Shown: positions 15,110-59,913 of the stretch, one piece after another
Layout of the letters: each line of letters opens with the position of its first letter
Position numbering within the stretch: the first letter of the stretch is position 1
Position numbers and translations under genes: made by a program
From: a virus
Taxonomy: Duplodnaviria > Caudoviricetes
Strand: one strand, 5' to 3'
DNA: 64,000 nucleotides
IMG/VR virus record: IMGVR_UViG_3300032227_000993
Notes under the pieces: generated by a model
What the model was told of the DNA's origin: nothing
Database searches by the model: none
The model's input: only the letters and a program-made list of their open reading frames with translations

Positions 15110-15186
15110 ACTGGTGCGTAAGGATTAAGTTTGTAGTCCTGGTCGCCTTGCTGTTCAGGATAGATTGGATATTGATTTTCATTCAT
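15106..15186 (-). CDS. 26-aa Tyr/Pro-rich peptide (absent from ORF track)
   Basis: MNENQYPIYPEQQGDQDYKLNPYAPV; start overlaps the upstream stop and its TGA overlaps the next ATG (ATGA). Confidence 0.7.
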   Translation of the reverse strand: MNENQYPIYPEQQGDQDYKLNPYAPV

Positions 15187-16459
15187 CATGCGGTTCCCAA
15201 CTGTAATCTACATTAATAACAACTTTATTCTGTTTAGCATAATACGTTTTAGGATCAAAGGTATCTTTGGTTACTTTGATTCTTTTGTTTGTACCATCAT
15301 CAAAGTACACAGTCCACACATAGTATTGTCCGGCTTGTAATTCAGACTCACCTTCGTCTTCACTAAAGTGTTGTCTTTTTATGCTGTCTTTCTTTTGTTC
15401 GCGATTTTTAATAATGGTTTTGGCGTTTACTGGTTGTGCTATTCTACGTGTGATGTTGCTCAACGCATTACTCATACCTTCAGCAACATACGCGGCTTTG
15501 GCGGCAGCATAGACTTCTGGATTGGCAGTAAAGTTAGCAAAGCGAGAACCTTGTGCCACCGTCCACTCCATAAAGTTTATTGATTCATTATGTTTCTTCT
15601 TGTTAGCATTGTCCAAGTAGCCACGCTTGTTTAAGGTAGCCCAACCAATGGCTTCTGCATCTTTCTTGCTGTGGCCCAACGCTTTTTCACTCCGAGCGAT
15701 GTGTTGTTGCATACGATCAACCTTGGCGCCTTCTTCCATTTCGCTGGATTCAGCACCAAAACTTTGACCTGGCCGAGGAGCACCCGCTTGTGTTCCCTTG
15801 TAATATCCGCCAAACTTGGCACCTGTAGGATTGTGTGCGGCCTGGGCCATAGACGCTTCATCTACACCTTGTTCTTTTTTCTTGGCAATGGCAATGGCGG
15901 CCTGCTGTGCTGGGCTACCTGCTTCGTCAAGATTCAGCGGCATCAATGTAATCTTTTCTGCTTTGGCCATGTTGCCTTCGCGATACAACTTTTGCTTCCA
16001 GTTGTCGTGGAAGCGGCGAGCTTGTTCATAGTAGTCAAACTTCTTAACAGGCTTACCTGCCAAACAAACAGCGTATGGCTCTACCTTGTTGAAGTCTTGG
16101 AATCCTTCATCAGCTCTGTGTGCTCGTACATAAGCGTGCCATTGACGTGGAGTGTCGCCACCGCCGCCGTGTTCTTCTAAATCTTCTTCTGCTAAACCTA
16201 ATGCTTGTAAATTACTTGCATCTGTTGATTGATTGTGTGCTAATGTTTCAGCACCTGGTGCTTCGTCTACATTTATTTTGTAATAGTTATCACGCTCTGC
16301 TTTGGCTCGAGCGTATTCATGGCGCATAGCTTCTTTGTATTTAGGATCGTTTGATGCTTTGGCACGTGCTGTGTAATCGTCCATCTTGGCTTCTAAATCT
16401 TCAATACGACGTGCTTCAAGGTCGTCGATGGCGCCTTCAAAAATATCAAATAAATTCAT
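15179..16459 (-). CDS. Modular putative internal head protein
   Basis: N-terminus MNLFDIFE; short modules separated by VDE/LEE/LDE/MEE sites. Confidence 0.6.
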   Translation of the reverse strand: MNLFDIFEGAIDDLEARRIEDLEAKMDDYTARAKASNDPKYKEAMRHEYARAKAERDNYYKINVDEAPGAETLAHNQSTDASNLQALGLAEEDLEEHGGGGDTPRQWHAYVRAHRADEGFQDFNKVEPYAVCLAGKPVKKFDYYEQARRFHDNWKQKLYREGNMAKAEKITLMPLNLDEAGSPAQQAAIAIAKKKEQGVDEASMAQAAHNPTGAKFGGYYKGTQAGAPRPGQSFGAESSEMEEGAKVDRMQQHIARSEKALGHSKKDAEAIGWATLNKRGYLDNANKKKHNESINFMEWTVAQGSRFANFTANPEVYAAAKAAYVAEGMSNALSNITRRIAQPVNAKTIIKNREQKKDSIKRQHFSEDEGESELQAGQYYVWTVYFDDGTNKRIKVTKDTFDPKTYYAKQNKVVINVDYSWEPHDE

Positions 16460-16461
16460 TT

Positions 16462-17421
16462 TTATTTCTCTTCGATGTAGTCAGCAGATTGTTCTGAAGC
16501 TAATTTTTCAGCACGATGAGCATTGTACATTTCCAATGCCATTTCTGCTTCGGCCAACGTGGCAAATTTGGTTGGCAATTCTTTGCCAGCACGTTTAATA
16601 CAGAATCCATCACGCTCGTCGCCGTGGATCTCAACCAGTACACTTCCGCCCATTTCATCCAATGGAACATTCATTGTTCTAACTGGTGCTGTGATACTTT
16701 CAGCATAAGTGGAGTTACTACCTTGTGCGTATGTAGTATCTGTTTCGCCAGCCGGAGCTTCGCCAGTTGGAGGAGTTTGATTTGGATCTTCATCTAATTC
16801 TTTACCGTGCTGTAAATCCCATACAGCATCGTGCTCGTCATCCTCCCAATCTTCAACATCTTCTTGGTCGTCGTGGAATTCAACATCACTAATGTGCATG
16901 CTTATTTCTTTACCGTATCCAAGATCAACAACCACAAACTTACCACTTGGACTAAACTCGGTAATATTACCAAACTCACCTTGATGATCATTAGGACCTA
17001 CAACACAAATACGATCACCTACTTCTAACTTCTGATGATCTTCCAGTGTCATTGGAATAGCTTCGTCGACTTCTTGTTGATTAACTTGTAGTTCTAAATC
17101 ACGTAATTCTTTTTTCTTTAAATCTAAGTCTTGTTTCTTCTTAGCAATTAAATCTCGATCTTGTTTGATTTGTTCTTCGGCACTTTTCAAGTAGTCAGCA
17201 AGACTATTTTTAACTTTAGATAGAACATCCTCTTCCATTTTATCTTCGGCAAACTCAACACCGCCGACCATGGGGATAGCCGACTCATCTCGTTTTAGAT
17301 TATTAAATAGTGCTGGTTTCTTTTGCTTTGTTGCGGTTTCAGCAATGACATTATCCTTGGGAGCAATACGCCCTTCAAGGATAGCTAATTTCTCAACAAT
17401 GCTTAAAAAGTGCTGATCCAT
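16462..17421 (-). CDS. Modular hypothetical protein with coiled coil and KOW/SH3-like segment
   Basis: LEVGDRICVVGP...GEFGNITE; repeated xDE/xAE sites. Confidence 0.6.
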   Translation of the reverse strand: MDQHFLSIVEKLAILEGRIAPKDNVIAETATKQKKPALFNNLKRDESAIPMVGGVEFAEDKMEEDVLSKVKNSLADYLKSAEEQIKQDRDLIAKKKQDLDLKKKELRDLELQVNQQEVDEAIPMTLEDHQKLEVGDRICVVGPNDHQGEFGNITEFSPSGKFVVVDLGYGKEISMHISDVEFHDDQEDVEDWEDDEHDAVWDLQHGKELDEDPNQTPPTGEAPAGETDTTYAQGSNSTYAESITAPVRTMNVPLDEMGGSVLVEIHGDERDGFCIKRAGKELPTKFATLAEAEMALEMYNAHRAEKLASEQSADYIEEK

Positions 17422-17422
17422 G

Positions 17423-17863
17423 TTATGCTCTGGCTACCTTTAGATAACTCTTTAATTGCCAGGAATATTTGCCATGGGCACTTTGACGTTCAGCGGCAAA
17501 GTTTGCGATGTCTTCGCGACCTTCGGCAGCGGCAGCATCAAATACTTGCTTGCTCATGCCAATCATGGTCTGTGTATCTGCGAGTAATTCTTCTAACATT
17601 AATCGGGCACGAGGAACCTTGGTCTGGTCCTGTATTTGGCTTAGTTCATTGAAGCGTGTTAGGCTTCCTGGTGCGTATTCTTCCATGGTACGGATGTATT
17701 CAGCAATGGGATCTACGGCTGAATATGCGTCTTCGTAGATTTTTTGTAAAAACTTGTGTAATTGGCCAAAGTCTGGGCCTTCTACGTTCCAATGGAACAT
17801 ATGACTCTTTAAATAGTACGAAAATGTACTGGCTAAGTAAGTTTTTAACAAATCTGCTAACAT
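17423..17863 (-). CDS. dps: Dps ferritin-like protein
   Basis: HMFHWNVEGPDFGQLHKF and DPIAEYIR ferroxidase motifs. Confidence 0.92.
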   Translation of the reverse strand: MLADLLKTYLASTFSYYLKSHMFHWNVEGPDFGQLHKFLQKIYEDAYSAVDPIAEYIRTMEEYAPGSLTRFNELSQIQDQTKVPRARLMLEELLADTQTMIGMSKQVFDAAAAEGREDIANFAAERQSAHGKYSWQLKSYLKVARA

Positions 17864-18066
17864 TATTTTTTCCGTTTGTATCGTTTGTACTCTGCCGGGG
17901 TATTAGGTGTCGGATCAGAGGCCGTAGTGTATTTACCTACAAACATACTATCGGGTATTCTTCGCTGGACAGCGCCCAAAGGCATAGCAACCGTAGCTAT
18001 ACTGCCGCTACCGGTGCTTCCTGCGCTGGCATTTTCTGTTAATCCTACAATTTCAAACAGTCTCAT
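17863..18066 (-). CDS. Small putative internal head protein
   Basis: MRLFEIVGLTE-NASAGSTGSGSIATV; basic C-terminus. Confidence 0.6.
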   Translation of the reverse strand: MRLFEIVGLTENASAGSTGSGSIATVAMPLGAVQRRIPDSMFVGKYTTASDPTPNTPAEYKRYKRKK

Positions 18067-18349
18067 CTGTAATCCTAAAAGTTGTATTGTCGATTATTTC
18101 AGCAGGGCCGTAATCTACAGTTAAATCACCTATTTTTAATTCAGCCAAACAGGGCGGAACCAGTTCATAACGTAATTTGTATGTATTGGGTTCGGCTTCT
18201 ACTTGTAATTCTTCTACAAGATATTGCCCTTCCCAAACCCATGTACGTTCACTAAACAATTCATCGTTGATGTATAGACGATAGGTGGGACTTAGGCCCT
18301 CCCATTCGCAGTCTATTTTACTCAGTAATCGCACGAATGTTTTGCTCAT
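18053..18349 (-). CDS. Hypothetical protein
   Basis: 98-aa ORF with TAAATA 4 nt before its ATG. Confidence 0.7.
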   Translation of the reverse strand: MSKTFVRLLSKIDCEWEGLSPTYRLYINDELFSERTWVWEGQYLVEELQVEAEPNTYKLRYELVPPCLAELKIGDLTVDYGPAEIIDNTTFRITDETV

Positions 18350-18368
18350 ACTGTATTTAGTGCTAATA

Positions 18369-19964
18369 TTATTTGGGGCTGGCTACTAAGCGTACATTTT
18401 GGGCTATATCGCCGCGGTATCCGTGTGTTGATTCCGGGTCATCTGCCCCGGTATTGATGGGTTTGTTTGTGCGCATATTGAATGCGTGTACATTTACAGA
18501 GCGGCCGTAGCGTTGCTCTAAGTCTTGCCATACTCGTTGGCCACCTGGACTTTGATATTTGTCGCTGACTAATGTAAGGCCTTGATTTTTAACTAACCAA
18601 GCATACAAGTCGGCAGCACGGATGGGAGCTTGTGGGCCAGCATAAATTCCAAAGATTTCAAATGCGTGTGGCTTGTTGTGCCCACTGATAGTCATTTGAC
18701 TAATGCGTGTTTTGGGATCGTACACAGAATAAGCAGAATCTTTTTTGTCGTCCCATTTGTAAACTTCGTAAGCTCCTATTCGGCCCACTTTAGTACCAAG
18801 CAGTTTTTGTTCTTTACCTGGCGGCACCGGCTTGCCTCTGTTTACCAATCCCGAGGTGTCTTGATTTTTAGGTTTGATGTTGTTATGATAAATCACTTCG
18901 CTTAACTCTCGTTCTTTATTTACACGAGCCATGTGTTGGGCATAAGTTTCTTGATCTTCTTCTGCGGACAAATCTGGTACATACGCCGGAATAGATTTAA
19001 TTCCTAATTCTCTTGCGGCCACAGCACGATGATTCCCATCAATCACCCATCCGTCATTATCTACTACAATTGGTTTATTTTTAATATCTTGTGCTGTGAT
19101 ATCACGAACATGATCGTAGTCAACGTAACTAATTTGTCCATAAGGACTGCCGTCTTTTTCAAGATGTAAACTACTAACAGGTACAGTAGTCAACTCCCAT
19201 ACAGGATGATTAGTTATTGAAGAATCAATTTTAAACTCACCTTTAGGGTGTATCTTTTTAATGTAAGACAGTATCTGCTTGCTTAACTCTTCGTTAGTCT
19301 TTTTTTTACCCGACTTCATGTTGGCGCACCAATGATACATTTTGGCACGTTCACCTGAACTATTCTTAGCCTTACGGCGTAAGTCTGTTACTGAACCTGA
19401 ACAACTGGCTCCAGCCTTTTTTACTCTACCTGGGCGACTTTTACCTTTAACTTTGCCATCAGCAAAGTTTTCGTCAATGTGTGGTTTTAAAAAAGTGTCA
19501 GCAAACTTTTTACATAACGCTTTGAGTTTAGTATTTTCTGTGATAATAGTAACAAACTTGTCTTGTGTATTTTCTTGCGTGGGATCTTTGTAGCCGCAGT
19601 AAGCAACTTTGACACCTTTGCTGTTTAACAAATCAGCACAGGATTCTTCATAGCGGCTATCCATTCTGTCCGAACATGGACTCAGCGTAGTAACTACAAT
19701 ACTGCCCTTGGGTAGTTCGCCGTACTCCGCTTCGTATTTGTCGACAGCGGCACGTTCTGCGTGTACACGATAGTCGCCATACACGTAGTTTAATCCTGTG
19801 ACCAATCTGCCAGCAGGATCAATCACAGCGGCCGCTACTGAACCATAAAAGTCTGGATTATCTTGTTTACCTTCTAAAATAATTTCGCATAGCTCGACCA
19901 GCACCGCATCTAATTGTTCGTTGCTATACTTTGTTTTAGGAACAGTAAAATCATTTAATATCAT
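18369..19964 (-). CDS. Polyprotein: Zn-deaminase domain, basic Cys module, ParB-like domain, unknown C-terminal domain
   Basis: HAE...TLSPC...C deaminase motif; VIDGNHR ParB/Srx motif. Confidence 0.75.
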   Translation of the reverse strand: MILNDFTVPKTKYSNEQLDAVLVELCEIILEGKQDNPDFYGSVAAAVIDPAGRLVTGLNYVYGDYRVHAERAAVDKYEAEYGELPKGSIVVTTLSPCSDRMDSRYEESCADLLNSKGVKVAYCGYKDPTQENTQDKFVTIITENTKLKALCKKFADTFLKPHIDENFADGKVKGKSRPGRVKKAGASCSGSVTDLRRKAKNSSGERAKMYHWCANMKSGKKKTNEELSKQILSYIKKIHPKGEFKIDSSITNHPVWELTTVPVSSLHLEKDGSPYGQISYVDYDHVRDITAQDIKNKPIVVDNDGWVIDGNHRAVAARELGIKSIPAYVPDLSAEEDQETYAQHMARVNKERELSEVIYHNNIKPKNQDTSGLVNRGKPVPPGKEQKLLGTKVGRIGAYEVYKWDDKKDSAYSVYDPKTRISQMTISGHNKPHAFEIFGIYAGPQAPIRAADLYAWLVKNQGLTLVSDKYQSPGGQRVWQDLEQRYGRSVNVHAFNMRTNKPINTGADDPESTHGYRGDIAQNVRLVASPK

Positions 19965-21337
19965 TCACAATTCCAACGACGGCGTGCCTTGCAAATTGCT
20001 TTATCTGGAGTCTTGGCACAGCTGATACTGTGCATTTTCATTTGGCCTCGACTGCGTGAGCAATAACTCTTGCGACGCTTGCTGGCCTTTGAACCCTTCT
20101 TTAACTTGCTGGGTTTGGTAGTCACAGCCGTCTTCAACTTGCTACCTGGGTGTTCTCTGCGATAAGAATTAACAGCCTTTTGACTCATGCCATCTGTCTT
20201 GTCTTTCTTGTTGGCCTTTTGCCAATCTTCCATGACAGGTTGTGTGACAGCAAACACATACAATTCATCATCAGTTAGGCTTTCTAAATCTTCCCAAATT
20301 ACATCTGCGTCTACTTGATTGCGTACGGCCAGTGTGTTAATAATTGATTCGATAAGATCAAACTCTTCGGTCATAGCGTCTACTATGCCATTTTCGTGTT
20401 GGCTAACCATGTAGTCCATGACTGCCACCACCATGCCTTTGGCCTGTGATATTTTGGCTTGACACCACTCAGGTAAATTTTCGTTATCGTAAATGGCTTT
20501 TTCTAAATGTGTGCTGACCCGTTGTATTGTTTGCAGATCGTTTTTAAACATACCTGCTTCGTCGTTGTATTCAGCATTATCAATATCTTCGCCAAATCTA
20601 GCACGATAGCTGTTGGGATCCATACTGGATTTACTACCAATAACTTTGTGTCCTTCGCCGGCAAGCAACATATCGTACATCATTTTAATAATTACCAAAG
20701 GACTATTTAATTGATCTACCCGATCATAAAAGAAAGCAATTTTTTCAGGTTTCATTCGCTTAACTGGCTTGCCCTTGATTAATTCTTTGGCCCGGGCTTT
20801 TAGTGTAGGCAAATCACGAATGCGCTCTAAACTTTTTAGGTCAGCAGGTGTAAAATTATCATGTTCACCATTTATTTCTGTGCTTTCATTTTTGGCAGTC
20901 TTGGCAGCATCTTTCCAGGCCTGTGCTGTAGGTGCTTTAGGGCTGTCAGCATCTCTGCTGGTGCCGGCCTTTTTGCGTTTGTTCACGTTGTAATACAATC
21001 CGTGCTTGGCCTCTTCTTCTACACTTTCGTTAGGCACACAGTTACGCACTTGTTTGCCTGTGGTAGCACTTTTCTTTGTACCTGCCGCATGATAGCCTGA
21101 CCAGCATTTGGTAACGCCATTTGAATCCTTGGCACCTTTTTTGATCTCCATAATGCTACCATGTGTTTGACACTTGCCACAGTCGGGGCAAGTCATTTCC
21201 ATTACAGACATACTTTCATTGGTTTTTTTCTTGCCAGCACAGTGAGCCTTTTGACTAAAACCTTTGGGATGTGAGCAGTTGATACTCTTCTTGTACTTGC
21301 GACTCCATTCTTCATTTAGAATTTCATTAATTTGCAT
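19961..21337 (-). CDS. Polyprotein of small Lys/Cys-rich modules
   Basis: INCSHPKGFSQKAHC, CPDCGKC, KCWSGY...RNCV, and a C-terminal RRKSYCSR...ARRRWNC module. Confidence 0.75.
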   Translation of the reverse strand: MQINEILNEEWSRKYKKSINCSHPKGFSQKAHCAGKKKTNESMSVMEMTCPDCGKCQTHGSIMEIKKGAKDSNGVTKCWSGYHAAGTKKSATTGKQVRNCVPNESVEEEAKHGLYYNVNKRKKAGTSRDADSPKAPTAQAWKDAAKTAKNESTEINGEHDNFTPADLKSLERIRDLPTLKARAKELIKGKPVKRMKPEKIAFFYDRVDQLNSPLVIIKMMYDMLLAGEGHKVIGSKSSMDPNSYRARFGEDIDNAEYNDEAGMFKNDLQTIQRVSTHLEKAIYDNENLPEWCQAKISQAKGMVVAVMDYMVSQHENGIVDAMTEEFDLIESIINTLAVRNQVDADVIWEDLESLTDDELYVFAVTQPVMEDWQKANKKDKTDGMSQKAVNSYRREHPGSKLKTAVTTKPSKLKKGSKASKRRKSYCSRSRGQMKMHSISCAKTPDKAICKARRRWNCE

Positions 21338-23225
21338 TTTTAAACTCCTGGTATTCTTTCATCATACGCTTTACAACACCATCGGCACGTAGCTCTTGTG
21401 GGCGGCCTTGGCTGTCTGTATTTAACAATAATTTGTTGGCATTTTTTCCTGTGGCACCTGGGCGTACATCCACAGTAAGTGCCATTTCAAAACGTGGATC
21501 GTCGGCTTGTGCGGCGGTAGGAATGTAGCCCGAAGCTTCGTTTAATTTGGTTTCCATCACCGGCATTTTTTTAATATCTATCTTTGATTCGGAATATTTT
21601 ATTTTAAGCACTAATTTAAAATCTTCAAAATCTTTTTGCGAAGCAAATAAAAGTTGATTATTTTTTGAATAGTTATGCGTACCACTATCAATTTTAAGTA
21701 TGTAATGTGTATTTGTTTCGCCAATATATTCGGCAATACCGTAAAAAATAATAATATCGCTAGCGGTTTGATTGGGCATTGCTAAAATACATTTATTATA
21801 TTTTTTAGGTTCTGGTAAATCTTTTTTGTAGTTGTTTAACCATGTATTAAAATCTGTTGACTCTTTAGGATTTGTTGATTCAAACATTTTAGCGGGCCAT
21901 AAATCATCACTTCTTATGCTAAACCCAATTTCATTCCACGGATTTTGCGCGGCTTCGTTTAAATCTACACTTGAAAACAATTCTGGATGAGCATGACCAT
22001 ATTCACGCATCAAGATACCAGCTCTAGCATTTGCTTCGTTTTCCCAGGCACTACCAGTGTCGCCTGCGTGGCCTGGAACATCTTCACGCTCGTGTTGGTG
22101 TTGATGAGTAAGTTCATGAGCAACCGTGCGAAGAATATCCATAAGATGGCGATTGGCCAAACTCACTTCTAATTGATTGGTTTCAGAATTGTAACGACCA
22201 AATGTTTTAGCACGTTTAGACCATTCTGGATCACGTTTGATACGCAAGTCTGGTGTGCGTTCTAATCCAAGTTGATCAACACAGAACTGTACAAAATCTT
22301 GAAGCGTATCCTCTTTACTAGTAGGCTCTGCGTCTTCGTTGGCAAATTCACAGGTGCTGGCGTTGGTACCGTCGGGCGTAATTCCAACTTCGTCTAGGTG
22401 TTCTTCGTTGGCAAACATACAAGTACTGGCGCTAACGCCATCGGGTGTTACTCCTACTTCATCTAGATAATCTTCGCCATAGCCGTAATTGACAACGTTA
22501 CGAGTCTTGAGTCTTTCTTTAAGACTTAATTCAGCATCATGCATTTCGTTGCGAGCTTTGAATAATTTTTCTAACAAGCCGTTGTGTCTTAACATTTTGA
22601 AAACCAAGTTTTCAACACTGAACTCGCCTGCTGTGTGCAGGCCTGACTTGCGCATTTGTCCAATGCGTTGAATTAGATCTTTGATAGAACCAAGATCTCC
22701 TGAAGCAACGGTTTGTTTAATGCGGTCTGCGTAATCTTCAAACTTGCTAGTAACACTGATATCATTGGTTTCAGATTTATGACGTTTGGGAATTTCTATC
22801 CACTTGTTGTGTAGTACGCTGTAAATGCCTTGACTAACGTGCGGTTCATTGGCATCCTGTACATACAGTTCAACTGGGGTTCCGCCAATGGTAATTTTAT
22901 GTTGTGTATTGTATTGAAACTTTTTAGCATTAAATAATTCACGATACACATCAATGTTGTAGGTTGGAAAATTTATTACCAAGTGCAAATCAATGTCGCT
23001 TTCTGGTGTATAGGTGTACGCTGCGTTTGAGCCAGAAATAGTAATGTCTACAAGATCTAAATCAGCCACACCCAGTGATGTTTTAAAATCATCTGCTATT
23101 GCCAATAATGCGTCGTGTACATCTGGGCGTAGTTGTTCGTGTTTATCCCAAAGTCTAGGGTTTAATTTTGTATTAAATTTTACAGCATCGGCTAAATTGA
23201 AGTTTTCAAGCTCAAAAATATTCAT
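21327..23225 (-). CDS. Polyprotein: Pol-beta-type nucleotidyltransferase, HExxH metallopeptidase-like domain, further modules
   Basis: SGSNAAYTYTPESDIDLHL (GS..DxD) with VELYVQD; VAHELTH. Confidence 0.75.
   Translation of the reverse strand: MNIFELENFNLADAVKFNTKLNPRLWDKHEQLRPDVHDALLAIADDFKTSLGVADLDLVDITISGSNAAYTYTPESDIDLHLVINFPTYNIDVYRELFNAKKFQYNTQHKITIGGTPVELYVQDANEPHVSQGIYSVLHNKWIEIPKRHKSETNDISVTSKFEDYADRIKQTVASGDLGSIKDLIQRIGQMRKSGLHTAGEFSVENLVFKMLRHNGLLEKLFKARNEMHDAELSLKERLKTRNVVNYGYGEDYLDEVGVTPDGVSASTCMFANEEHLDEVGITPDGTNASTCEFANEDAEPTSKEDTLQDFVQFCVDQLGLERTPDLRIKRDPEWSKRAKTFGRYNSETNQLEVSLANRHLMDILRTVAHELTHQHQHEREDVPGHAGDTGSAWENEANARAGILMREYGHAHPELFSSVDLNEAAQNPWNEIGFSIRSDDLWPAKMFESTNPKESTDFNTWLNNYKKDLPEPKKYNKCILAMPNQTASDIIIFYGIAEYIGETNTHYILKIDSGTHNYSKNNQLLFASQKDFEDFKLVLKIKYSESKIDIKKMPVMETKLNEASGYIPTAAQADDPRFEMALTVDVRPGATGKNANKLLLNTDSQGRPQELRADGVVKRMMKEYQEFKNAN
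22333..22466 (-). repeat. Two in-frame 69-nt (23-aa) tandem units
   Basis: LDEVGVTPDGVSASTCMFANEEH / LDEVGITPDGTNASTCEFANED. Confidence 0.85.
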
Positions 23226-23242
23226 AGTATACTATTTACCGT

Positions 23243-23281
23243 AAAAAACAAAAGCCGCTTACATTGCTGTAGCGGCTTTTG
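23243..23281 (-). terminator. Intrinsic terminator
   Basis: AAAAGCCGCT...AGCGGCTTTT stem followed on - strand by GTTTTTT. Confidence 0.85.
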
Positions 23282-24314: not shown

Positions 24315-25136
24315 TTAAATGCGACTAGGAGGCCAGTAGGATTCAGTTTTGTCTTTTTCGTTAATGTAGTTGGGAGCTAAATCTTCGTCAAATACAGCAT
24401 AGCTGTTTACAGCACGAGCTTCTAGGACCTGTATTGATTCTAGCATTTTAGCCAACTTTTCTTTGTGCTCGCGCTTTACTGGAGCAGGAGTGTCCATTAC
24501 ATTAGCGTCTAATGGTTTTTGTTTGTACACAAAATCTTTGGCTTGTTGAGCTGGAAGTAATCTAGCATCAAAAATATCTTTTAAATTGTCATCAGGTTCA
24601 CCGTACAAATCTGTAATAATTTGCTCACGGTCAGCGTTGTTGCCAGCTGTGTACATTTTACGGATTTCTGTAGCAGAATTAGCATCCTTACCTTTGACTT
24701 TGAAGTTGACTGTAGGAGTTACCATCACATAAGCGTGTTTGGTCATTGGCTTTACACCTTTACCATCAGCTGGGTATGGTTGCATGTAACTTGGAGTGCC
24801 ATCTTTTTTAACTCCAAATTTAAATCTAGCATCCTCACCCATGTCTTTTTGAGATACAGCAAAAATTAATACTGTATTTTCTGGATCAGCAATATCTTTG
24901 GTAATTTCTTGTGCCTGATATGGATTTCTAACTTGAACAACGCGACTGCTAGGAATACCAGTTTTTGTTATCATAGCAAGTTTGTCACCAAAACTAAATG
25001 GACTTGTTACCGGTGCCTGTACTGCAGATGTGGCAATGTAAACATCATCAAACTGACTGATCAGCTGATCATAACTGGCCTTGTGGCCTTGGTGAAATGG
25101 TTGAAATCTTCCGGGATATATTACAACTGTGCGCAT
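24315..25136 (-). CDS. Cytidyltransferase-like (HxGH) nucleotidyltransferase
   Basis: YPGRFQPFHQGH and SATEIR. Confidence 0.8.
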   Translation of the reverse strand: MRTVVIYPGRFQPFHQGHKASYDQLISQFDDVYIATSAVQAPVTSPFSFGDKLAMITKTGIPSSRVVQVRNPYQAQEITKDIADPENTVLIFAVSQKDMGEDARFKFGVKKDGTPSYMQPYPADGKGVKPMTKHAYVMVTPTVNFKVKGKDANSATEIRKMYTAGNNADREQIITDLYGEPDDNLKDIFDARLLPAQQAKDFVYKQKPLDANVMDTPAPVKREHKEKLAKMLESIQVLEARAVNSYAVFDEDLAPNYINEKDKTESYWPPSRI

Positions 25137-44547: not shown

Positions 44548-44925
44548 TTAGTCATCCAACGGTTCGTCGTTAGTGAGTTCTTGTATCACTGCTGGATTAA
44601 GACCAGCGGCTCTACGTAAGGCAACAATTTCATCCTCTTTGATTGGAGTATCTGGAATTTCTTGTTCAGCGCCATAAGCATCTAATTCAGCTGTATGATC
44701 ATAAACATTGTCAACATCCACTGCTCGCTTGAGCAGTTCAATTTTTAACTGCAGCGGTGGAATCATAAGGCCATGGGGCTGTTCAGCTTCACCGCTAGGA
44801 TTGTCTACTTGGCCAGCGGCCTCAGGTTCTACCACAACTGCGGCTGGCTGTGCCTGGGTGTCTTGTCCGGTGCCATGCTGTTCGATTGTGTCGGCCAATG
44901 CTCTCAATATTTCTTCAAATCTCAT
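44548..44925 (-). CDS. Hypothetical acidic protein
   Basis: 125-aa ORF, MRFEEIL N-terminus. Confidence 0.65.
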   Translation of the reverse strand: MRFEEILRALADTIEQHGTGQDTQAQPAAVVVEPEAAGQVDNPSGEAEQPHGLMIPPLQLKIELLKRAVDVDNVYDHTAELDAYGAEQEIPDTPIKEDEIVALRRAAGLNPAVIQELTNDEPLDD

Positions 44926-59364: not shown

Positions 59365-59913
59365 TTAGATCCGTTCGGAACATACGTCCCAGTTGATAAT
59401 CTTCCAGATGTTATCTAGGTATTTTTCTTTGTCCCACTGGTATTCAAGGCTCCATGCATGCTCCCACCAGTCAACCAGTACACAGATATCTGTCCTAACC
59501 TGATGATTCGGGATGGTTTTAATCGTGCCCGATGTGCTAAGATATACCCAACCTGATCCCTGGATGGCCATGGCCACTTTTTTAAATTCAGCTTTGAAGT
59601 CTTCATATGTTTTAAAGTTTGATTCGATAAGTTCCAACACAGCGCCTCGTGGCTTGTTAGCACCTTTGGGTGCTTGTAGCTGTGGGAAAAACTTGTTGTG
59701 TAGGAAACTACCAGCACGATTAAAAGTGGCATCACCTTCGCCGGCATTGTAGCGTTTGGCGTAGCCTTTGGCTAGATGCTCGTAGTGATACTCGATTGTG
59801 GCAGCACTCATCACAGGCTCCAAGTCCTTGTGAGTGTAGGGCAATGGTGTAGTTTCCAGTTTGGCTGGAACTGTGCTGGCTTCTACTATGTTTATTGTTT
59901 CGCGGATATCCAT
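59365..59913 (-). CDS. sod: Fe/Mn superoxide dismutase
   Basis: LPY...LEPVMS, EYH, LHN, QGSGW, DWWEHAW metal-ligand motifs. Confidence 0.92.

Follow-up and report, generated by a model that had tools for sequence, protein, structure and literature searches.

Why does a bacteriophage encode chains of unrelated protein modules that meet, time after time, at the same kind of three-residue motif? The question is raised by eight genes at positions 15179-23225 of a 64,000-nucleotide (nt) stretch of viral DNA (the window; IMG/VR record IMGVR_UViG_3300032227_000993). All eight lie on the minus strand, their stops and starts overlap or nearly abut, and their products are, in gene order, 632, 458, 531, 98, 67, 146, 319 and 426 amino acids (aa) long. 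Elsewhere the window encodes a DNA polymerase of the T4 family, a clamp loader and virion proteins. Sequence comparisons indicate that the cluster comprises eight putatively late genes of an uncultured T4-related phage, whose products are probably capsid-packed precursors that are cut into enzymes and small basic peptides. That the cluster as a whole is head-internal cargo of a T4-type phage, encoded as cleavable precursors, is in our judgement a fairly probable answer to the question.

The T4 prohead protease gp21 cleaves after L/I-x-E, and processing is blocked when Asp replaces Glu (PMC9026906). The T4 protein Alt, for example, is cut at ITE-6 and LTE-619 (PMC5694885). A reading of the window made from its letters alone (the sequence-only reading) had proposed that comparable sites separate the modules of the cluster, and that five of the proteins begin with capsid-targeting-like peptides. 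The N-termini that it quoted (MNLFDIFE, MRLFEIVGLTE, MILNDF, MQINEILNEE and MNIFELE) are all exact, and every site that it listed is present: VDE/A at residues 64 and 199, LEE/H at 94 and LDE/A at 177 of the 426-aa protein; IME/I at 62 and VME/D at 368 of the 458-aa protein; IDE/N at 163 and LSE/V at 354 of the 531-aa protein; LDE/V at 254 and 277 and LNE/A at 422 and 561 of the 632-aa protein; and the three sites of the 319-aa protein given in Table 1.

These sites divide chains of several parts. The 632-aa protein consists of a leader (residues 1-5, IFE/L), a nucleotidyltransferase (about 20-239), a disordered linker (240-299) with two LDE/V repeats, a HExxH peptidase-like domain (300-418), an unassigned module (425-563) and the ASGYIPT module (564-632). 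The 458-aa protein has the leader MQINEILNE (1-9), the basic, Cys-containing WSxKYK module (10-38), a further basic module (65-108), an unassigned middle, the acidic EFDLIESII module (325-370) and a DUF6321 domain with a net charge of +21 (371-458). In the 531-aa protein, a deaminase (8-160) is followed by the basic NFADG module (166-222), a ParB-like domain (227-345) and a beta-rich domain (380-531). The 426-aa protein begins with the leader MNLFDIFE (1-8) and continues with an N-terminal module that ends in VDE/A at residue 66, a module at 118-179 that ends in LDE/A, a 22-aa AQQAAIAIA peptide that ends in VDE/A at residue 201, and a C-terminal part. The middle module of the 319-aa protein (about 121-195) is found inside other giant proteins in relatives.

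Cultured phages offer no close match at the DNA level. A megablast search of the whole cluster against 50,697 phage records yielded no match, nor did a tblastn search of the 531-aa protein against cultured phages. Two scans of IMG/VR yielded 50 loci with the same cluster, in which the Dps-like protein serves as a conserved anchor (63-91% identity in 45 loci). One of these loci lies in G001, a complete 344-kb relative with terminal repeats, the full sequence of which was used.

The number of hydrophobic-x-Glu motifs is not informative. The cluster proteins contain 1.3-3.5 [ILVM]xE sites per 100 residues, about what their composition predicts. We rejected this raw density as evidence, and the test is therefore one of motif position, not of motif number. 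A tighter pattern, [LIV][DN]EA, was dropped since it is not enriched in G001 (17 seen versus 11 expected); the residue between the hydrophobic position and the Glu is free.

To locate module boundaries, 131 distinct cluster proteins from the 50 loci were compared all against all, and a boundary was called where homology starts or stops with an unrelated flank. The motif [ILVM]-x-E occurs at 84 of 205 module starts (28 expected) and at 112 of 223 module ends (37.5 expected). Specifically, hydrophobic-x-Glu is enriched 3.0-fold at boundaries, versus 1.7-fold for [AST]-x-E at both starts and ends. The same pattern with Asp in place of Glu occurs at 0.47 times the expected number at starts and 0.85 times at ends, and the controls [ILVM]-x-Q and [ILVM]-x-K reach 0.8-0.9 times at starts and 0.5-0.9 times at ends. 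Thus, the check that the sequence-only reading had suggested, on whether module boundaries coincide with the proposed sites, came out in its favor, with an enrichment of about three-fold and no enrichment of the Asp control. These counts also bear on the possibility that the proteins act intact in the cytoplasm, with N-terminal and junction motifs that are structural or translational and have no packaging role. The background-level density of the motif overall suits that explanation, but a boundary enrichment that is specific to Glu, with Asp depleted, has no evident structural reason.

Individual modules exhibit the same rule. In all 15 of its upstream contexts, NFADG follows [ILVM]-x-E; one of these is a stand-alone 69-aa gene in which MELLMRAEEFISE leads into NFADG. 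The WSxKYK module has a leader or [LVIM]-x-E directly before it in 16 of 16 contexts, and has [LVIM]-x-E in all 10 contexts in which it is internal. For ASGYIPT, Glu precedes the module in 13 of 13 contexts, and in 12 of these L, I, V or A occupies the third position before the presumed cut. Homology boundaries in the 632-aa protein fall at residues 426 and 561, and 13 relatives end their homology at 426. At the position of VME/D before DUF6321, cyanophage homologues have MNE/D and TNE/D, whereas the DUF6321 proteins of Pelagibacter phages stand alone, with neither leader nor motif. Since the motif precedes DUF6321 only outside the Pelagibacter phages (two phages only), the joint appears to belong to the T4-type context and not to the domain. 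In P-TIM68 the triplet before DUF6321 is TNE. LEE/H at residue 94 of the 426-aa protein has little comparative support.

AlphaFold2 models of the 531-aa and 632-aa proteins, built with alignments of relatives, place the best-supported sites in, or at the edge of, low-confidence linkers. In the modeled 531-aa protein, IDE/N lies in a segment (161-176) with a predicted local distance difference test score below 50, the basic module ends at a dip in confidence (219-222), and LSE/V is located just before the low-confidence stretch 358-379. In the modeled 632-aa protein, the nucleotidyltransferase and the peptidase-like domain are confidently folded, residues 1-19 are of low confidence, both LDE/V sites are inside the disordered linker, and LNE/A (422-424) is positioned where confidence drops from residue 419 onward, after the peptidase domain. 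This linker contains a 23-residue tandem duplication (22389-22466, minus strand), the copies of which follow LDE and read VG[VI]TPDG...ASTC.FANE; the G001 homologue has a single copy.

The T4 capsid targeting sequence (CTS) and the processing of internal proteins (IPs) by gp21 were reportedly described by Mullaney and Black in 1996. In the T4 record, IPII and IPIII start with MKTYQEFIAE/A, IPI with MKTFKEF...ITE/A, gp24 with MAKINELLRE/S and gp21 with MNEPQLLIE. Mapping in T4 has assigned CTS residues 4 and 7 to targeting and residues 8 and 10 to processing (PMC9026906). Among the related loci, 82 of 837 open reading frames (ORFs) start with a matching leader pattern, and 39 distinct strict matches yield the consensus M-[RK]-A-x-E-F-[ILV]-x-E. 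Cluster proteins of relatives start with MRAHEFIAE, MRATEFITE, MKANEFVTE and similar peptides. In G001 the pattern is 5-9 times more common at true N-termini than after internal Met residues. When a module forms its own gene, the leader abuts it exactly, as in MRAEEFISE-NFADG and MKAYEFITE-KWSQKYK. Similarly, MRAKEFLAE precedes a stand-alone ParB-like domain, and MKAYEFITE, MKANEFVTE or MRSSEFVFE abuts the homologue of the WSxKYK module of the 458-aa protein.

The leaders of the window are degenerate versions of this consensus. MRLFEIVGLTE of the 67-aa protein is homologous to MRAHEFIAE; in relatives this protein starts with MRAHEFIAE, MRAQEFIKE or MRASEFVVE, followed by NASAGxT. MQINEILNE of the 458-aa protein is homologous to MKANEFVTE and closely resembles the T4 gp24 propeptide MAKINELLRE. 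MNLFDIFE of the 426-aa protein represents a second leader class, MNL[FL]D[IL][FY]E/G, that is common to relatives. CTS-like leaders, taken as N-terminal peptides of about 6-19 residues that end in hydrophobic-x-Glu, are carried by the 458-, 67- and 426-aa proteins, as the sequence-only reading had claimed; its claim does not hold for MILNDF of the 531-aa protein and is ambiguous for MNIFELE of the 632-aa protein. We regard the leaders of these last two proteins as doubtful.

At the nucleotide level, leader codons differ synonymously at the conserved Ala, Phe, Ile and Arg positions, and the selection is therefore on the peptide. This is a second difficulty for proteins that act intact in the cytoplasm. 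Several of the genes do have leaderless-type starts, such that their first codons might affect initiation, but most leader-bearing genes are internal to the operon and translationally coupled.

Peptides that resemble leaders also occur elsewhere. A Fe/Mn superoxide dismutase (59365-59913, minus strand), in which the Pfam domain begins at about residue 18, has a leader-like extension that ends in hydrophobic-x-Glu, and by its sequence this enzyme may be addressed to the head too. A 125-aa protein with no family match (44548-44925, minus strand) starts with MRFEEILRALADTIE/Q and adjoins a 2010-aa fiber-like gene. In G001 (locus L060), another set of small genes with leaders is located close to the tail and neck genes (about 124205-129949); the leaders are MRAREFIAE, MRAVEFITE, MRAKEFIRE and MKNFKDYLTE. 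Finally, the C-terminus of the 632-aa protein (21327-21372, minus strand), MMKEYQEFKNAN, resembles the T4 leader MKTYQEF, which may be a coincidence. The stretch shares 11 nt with the beginning of the next gene, and its helix is kept in relatives within the ASGYIPT module.

Which enzyme would cut at the joints? A Peptidase_S77 gene (the gp21 family) is present in three of five related large records, which include both of those that are at least 90% complete; the gp21 homologue of G001 is encoded at 89211-89861. In the major capsid protein homologue of G001, LLE, LLE, ILE and LKE lie in the part aligned ahead of mature T4 gp23, and no protein of the proteome is denser in the motif than the scaffold-like protein whose gene neighbors that of the protease (6.7 per 100 residues versus a mean of 1.46). 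Because the motif is dense in both the scaffold and the capsid propeptide, it is a mark of genuine protease substrates in this clade.

In G001 the 319-aa protein's homologue takes third place for motif density; only this scaffold-like protein and an acidic protein whose gene adjoins the protease gene rank higher. This rank would suit a different role for some of the proteins, chiefly the 319-aa protein, as accessories of the prohead core or scaffold that are cut up and expelled and are not cargo. The 319-aa protein is acidic and has a coiled-coil-like stretch, and T4 gp22, gp67 and gp68 behave in this manner (PMC5694885). Most other modules, however, are folded enzymes or basic peptides, and such proteins stay in the T4 head. 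We consider this role quite unlikely; it suits one or two of the eight genes and not the cluster in its entirety.

A second candidate for the cutting enzyme is encoded within the cluster itself. If these are ordinary polyvalent proteins, then any processing might be the work of the HExxH metallopeptidase embedded in the 632-aa protein, acting in cis or in trans and perhaps once the host has been entered, instead of that of a prohead protease. The HExxH motif sits in the confidently folded domain of the 632-aa protein. This domain reaches 17.3 bits with the Pfam SprT-like family, under the cut-off of 25.6, and Foldseek yields weak matches to the minigluzincin fold (abylysin, E 0.01, probability 1.0). 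A processing role has been proposed for such embedded metallopeptidase domains (PMC5512222), and in relatives the nucleotidyltransferase-peptidase pair heads polyproteins of 1400-1700 residues. Nevertheless, the junction motif is that of gp21, the leaders end in the same motif and are removed by gp21 in T4, the highest motif densities in the relative are those of the scaffold and the capsid propeptide, and just one of the five multi-module proteins of the window contains a peptidase domain. We therefore consider processing by the embedded metallopeptidase unlikely, and return to the interpretation that the chains are cut by the head protease.

Relatives of two of the cluster domains have been detected in virions. 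The virion proteome of S-CREM2, a T4-like cyanophage, lists six unique peptides for ORF156 and four for ORF137 (Table 3 of PMC10665884). ORF156 (126012-126725) is the tblastn match of the window nucleotidyltransferase (match at 126060-126722), and ORF137 (108049-109521) is the match of the DUF6321 region. ORF156 starts with MKKLISE, and the multi-module ORF137 has MNE/D directly before DUF6321. ORF154, a virion-detected cytidylyltransferase that is annotated as a virion protein, has the CTS-like start MKNFSSFLTE/A. The S-CREM2 paper, on a distant relative, lists these proteins as hypothetical, with no reference to targeting leaders or protease sites (PMC10665884). In the cyanophage Bellamy, gp122, the product of a 51-aa gene, consists of MKSFKQFQE followed by the WSxKYK module, and cyanophage proteins that adjoin the terminase gene have the same leader and motif grammar. 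The window has a cytidylyltransferase-like gene (24315-25136, minus strand) two genes upstream of the nucleotidyltransferase, an arrangement that mirrors ORF154 and ORF156 of S-CREM2; it has no leader of the MKNFSSFLTE type. Nucleotidyltransferase and DUF6321 homologues of other phages are located in early or replication regions, as would suit proteins that work intact in the cytoplasm, but the detection of homologues in virions argues against a purely cytoplasmic role, which we consider very unlikely for the cluster.

Several observations weigh against the interpretation of these proteins as cleavable cargo. Homologues share boundaries, so the boundaries are not independent and permutation p-values are inflated; for this reason, we place weight only on the effect size and on the Asp control. 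EFDLIESII is preceded by the motif in all contexts shown but one, which has Lys for Glu. ADE/G, which precedes residue 118 of the 426-aa protein, does not fit the motif, and two basic modules end in KKK-TNE (21208-21225 and 19287-19304, minus strand), with Thr as the third residue before the presumed cut. The 531-aa, Dps-like and 98-aa proteins lack a CTS-like leader, with no cut motif behind MILNDF, and the two relatives that have its C-terminal domain as a stand-alone 191-aa version (that of the 531-aa protein) start this version without a leader. MNIFELE of the 632-aa protein resembles nucleotidyltransferase N-termini from a Maribacter phage outside the T4 group and from a cyanophage replication region, such that this leader may be intrinsic to the nucleotidyltransferase family. 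The protease evidence comes from related records and not from the window's own genome. Finally, the authors of the S-CREM2 study noted that abundant non-structural proteins may co-purify with virions (PMC10665884). As a separate observation, in relatives the modules that end in KKKTNE in the window stop at a stop codon directly after KKK.

If the proteins are cargo, then the following sequence of events can be proposed. The cluster genes would be transcribed late, and the N-terminal leader would bring each precursor into the assembling prohead core, like the T4 CTS. A prohead serine protease of the gp21 type would then cut after the Glu of hydrophobic-x-Glu, which would remove the leader and separate the modules. 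This cutting would release a nucleotidyltransferase, a zincin-like peptidase, a deaminase and a ParB-like protein, along with acidic spacers and small, strongly basic, Cys-containing peptides (isoelectric point (pI) 9-10.6) that would probably reside on the packed DNA. Cutting at the supported sites is predicted to yield about 25 pieces made up of basic peptides, enzyme domains and acidic spacers. The predicted basic, Cys-containing pieces are residues 10-64 (pI 9.1), 65-108 (pI 9.4) and 371-458 (pI 10.6, +21) of the 458-aa protein and 166-226 (pI 10.3) of the 531-aa protein, and the 67-aa protein would yield residues 12-67 (pI 10.2). For the phage of the window, we infer packaging and cleavage from sequence comparisons. 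By analogy, the products might also be injected into the host and have an early or anti-defense role.

The domains that the sequence-only reading had named are supported by Pfam, PHROG and Foldseek for the deaminase, the ParB-like domain and the nucleotidyltransferase, and weakly so for the HExxH peptidase. The 98-, 67-, 319- and 426-aa products of the cluster gave no domain match. The nucleotidyltransferase is of the Pol-beta type (phrog_36119, E 4e-45; PF01909 just below cut-off). The deaminase scores 30.8 bits with PF00383 (gathering score 25), and its fold matches RibD, dCMP deaminases and TadA in Foldseek with E down to 8e-8. The ParB-like domain has PHROG matches. DUF6321 was recognized by Pfam at residues 378-455 (35.6 bits versus a cut-off of 28.5). 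It also forms a stand-alone, basic 92-aa protein in the Pelagibacter phages HTVC100P and HTVC027P (small, non-T4), among early or replication genes, an occurrence that suggests a general nucleic-acid-binding role. Foldseek searches with the 632-aa model gave weak matches only, and among ten predicted fragments searched against Pfam at E up to 1, none passed the cut-off. Two sub-threshold matches were not used, one of them AP2-like (426-aa protein, residues 97-179, E 0.002) and the other to OAR.

The contents of the cluster are reshuffled among relatives, as the sequence-only reading had anticipated when it called the modules shuffleable. A conserved frame persists, which is composed of the nucleotidyltransferase-peptidase polyprotein, the DUF6321 protein, the 98-aa protein, the 67-aa protein (in nearly all relatives), Dps, the acidic protein and a giant protein, and the modules are exchanged within it. 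The 632-aa protein is equivalent to the first third of 1400-1740-residue chains in relatives. NFADG, which is internal to the 531-aa protein of the window, occurs in relatives at the C-terminus of giant chains or as its own 69-aa gene. The ParB-like domain is its own 120-aa gene in G001, two relatives encode the C-terminal domain of the 531-aa protein on its own, in a 191-aa gene, and a single 963-aa protein of locus L016 joins modules that are spread over four genes in the window. Because each module would have its own cut site, modules could fuse, split and reorder without losing delivery.

The core of the T4 late promoter is TATAAATA. The TAAATA box of the cluster matches six of its eight bases, and TAAATA stands 5-8 nt before the ATG of the first gene in the window and 13 relatives, most of which also have the hairpin ahead of it. 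The same layout, with no Shine-Dalgarno sequence, recurs before the 98-aa gene. In G001 it recurs before a gene that adjoins the head protease gene and was read as portal, and again before the small gene that follows. The coding (minus) strand of the window has 40 copies of TAAATA, versus 12 on the plus strand. The full TATAAATA is present at chance frequency (4 seen versus 4.7 expected), and thus a late-promoter function for TAAATA is plausible from the sequence but not established. A scan of the cluster for sigma-70 promoters and terminators gave nothing above shuffled controls. Gene starts preceded by TAAATA in the window (12398, 18349, 23225, 25136, 25965 and 63613) fall into two classes. 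In the first, 4-7 nt separate the box from the start codon and no Shine-Dalgarno sequence is present, which suggests leaderless or nearly leaderless late mRNAs. In the second, the box is located 20-26 nt upstream and is followed by a ribosome-binding site.

Table 1. Positions of the cluster genes, proposed junctions and upstream elements in the window
Feature	Position	Strand	Remarks
Intrinsic-terminator-like hairpin and T-run	23243..23278	-	Closes the upstream gene; also precedes the first cluster gene in most of 13 relatives
TAAATA box, 7 nt 5' of the ATG of the 632-aa gene	23233..23238	-	No Shine-Dalgarno sequence after the box
632-aa polyvalent protein	21327..23225	-	Profile searches, AlphaFold2, Foldseek
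Proposed LNE/A junction, residues 422-424 of the 632-aa protein, end of peptidase-like domain	21954..21962	-	
Proposed LNE/A junction, residues 561-563 of the 632-aa protein, before ASGYIPT module	21537..21545	-	
458-aa protein	19961..21337	-	
T4 CTS-like leader of the 458-aa protein, ends LNE/E	21311..21337	-	
Proposed VME/D junction, residues 368-370 of the 458-aa protein, before DUF6321	20228..20236	-	
531-aa protein	18369..19964	-	
Proposed IDE/N junction, residues 163-165 of the 531-aa protein, deaminase/NFADG boundary	19470..19478	-	
Proposed LSE/V junction, residues 354-356 of the 531-aa protein, before C-terminal domain	18897..18905	-	
Second TAAATA box, 4 nt 5' of the ATG of the 98-aa gene	18354..18359	-	Same box in the G001 homologue
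98-aa conserved protein, no leader, no family match	18053..18349	-	
67-aa protein: leader MRLFEIVGLTE (1-11) and 56-aa basic peptide, pI 10.2	17863..18066	-	
Dps/ferritin-like protein, 146 aa, no leader	17423..17863	-	PF00210, E 6e-19, residues 4-142
319-aa acidic protein, rich in cut motifs: VDE/A 118, LDE/D 209, LDE/M 254	16462..17421	-	
426-aa protein	15179..16459	-	

How does this arrangement compare with known systems? One close likeness is to T4 IPI, IPII, IPIII and Alt, which likewise have a short leader ending in hydrophobic-x-Glu and with which the E-F-I-x-E core is held in common (PMC9026906, PMC5694885). As in T4, unrelated mature parts follow a common leader, some products are basic, the genes (putatively late here) are scattered away from the head genes, and relatives have a protease of the same family. 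Whereas the T4 cargo is single-module, a chain in this cluster has up to five or six unrelated modules with the cut motif at its internal joints, and the leader of the clade starts with M-R-A and is one residue shorter than that of T4. Also unlike T4, the cargo would include a deaminase, a ParB-like domain and a nucleotidyltransferase-peptidase pair.

The chains also resemble the polyvalent proteins of phages and conjugative elements (Iyer et al., 2017; PMC5512222), in that they carry at least two unrelated effector-type domains, have variable architectures in relatives, and share with them Pol-beta nucleotidyltransferase and ParB-like domains and a putative zincin-like metallopeptidase. Those authors predicted capsid packaging and processing into separate units (PMC5512222). 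However, they ascribed processing to the embedded metallopeptidase, whereas the joints of this cluster have the prohead-protease motif and accompany T4-type leaders. The inner-body and ejection proteins of phiKZ, 201phi2-1 and SPN3US are likewise cut after Glu at a three-residue motif, often at multiple sites, by a distant gp21 homologue. In that group the motif is S/A-x-E or A-x-E, the protease belongs to S80 and the propeptides exceed 100 residues (PMC5694885). Our cluster has instead a hydrophobic third residue before the cut, an S77-family protease in relatives and leaders of 5-11 residues, and does not exhibit the phiKZ-type combination of an S/A/G-x-E motif and long propeptides.

The T4 literature has already suggested that the leader lets T4-like phages load varied proteins (PMC9026906). 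In the literature searched, we did not find the combination of a T4-type leader with the prohead-protease motif at every multi-module joint, extending to cyanophages. The same searches found no mention of DUF6321, no mention of polyproteins in work on head proteases, and capsid targeting together with cyanophage only in a T4 review.

It is possible, and we propose it tentatively, that a leader plus a hydrophobic-x-Glu joint constitutes one grammar across T4-type phages, from freshwater jumbo phages to marine cyanophages, for loading arbitrary enzymes and basic DNA-coating peptides as polyproteins. If true, then any module that gains a joint would become deliverable cargo, and fusion, fission and reordering would be free of cost. 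Redox enzymes, such as the leader-bearing superoxide dismutase of the window, might be packed as well. To our knowledge, the T4 targeting leader, a classic engineered tool, is known only on single small proteins of T-even phages. The combination of this tag with a head-protease site would thus be a natural, general syntax for loading many unrelated enzymes. Such a syntax would explain how polyvalent proteins are disassembled in phages in which most polyproteins have no peptidase of their own, and would provide a simple sequence rule that predicts the injected proteins of uncultured T4-type phages and cyanophages. It would also explain the recurrence of non-structural enzymes in proteomes of cyanophage virions.

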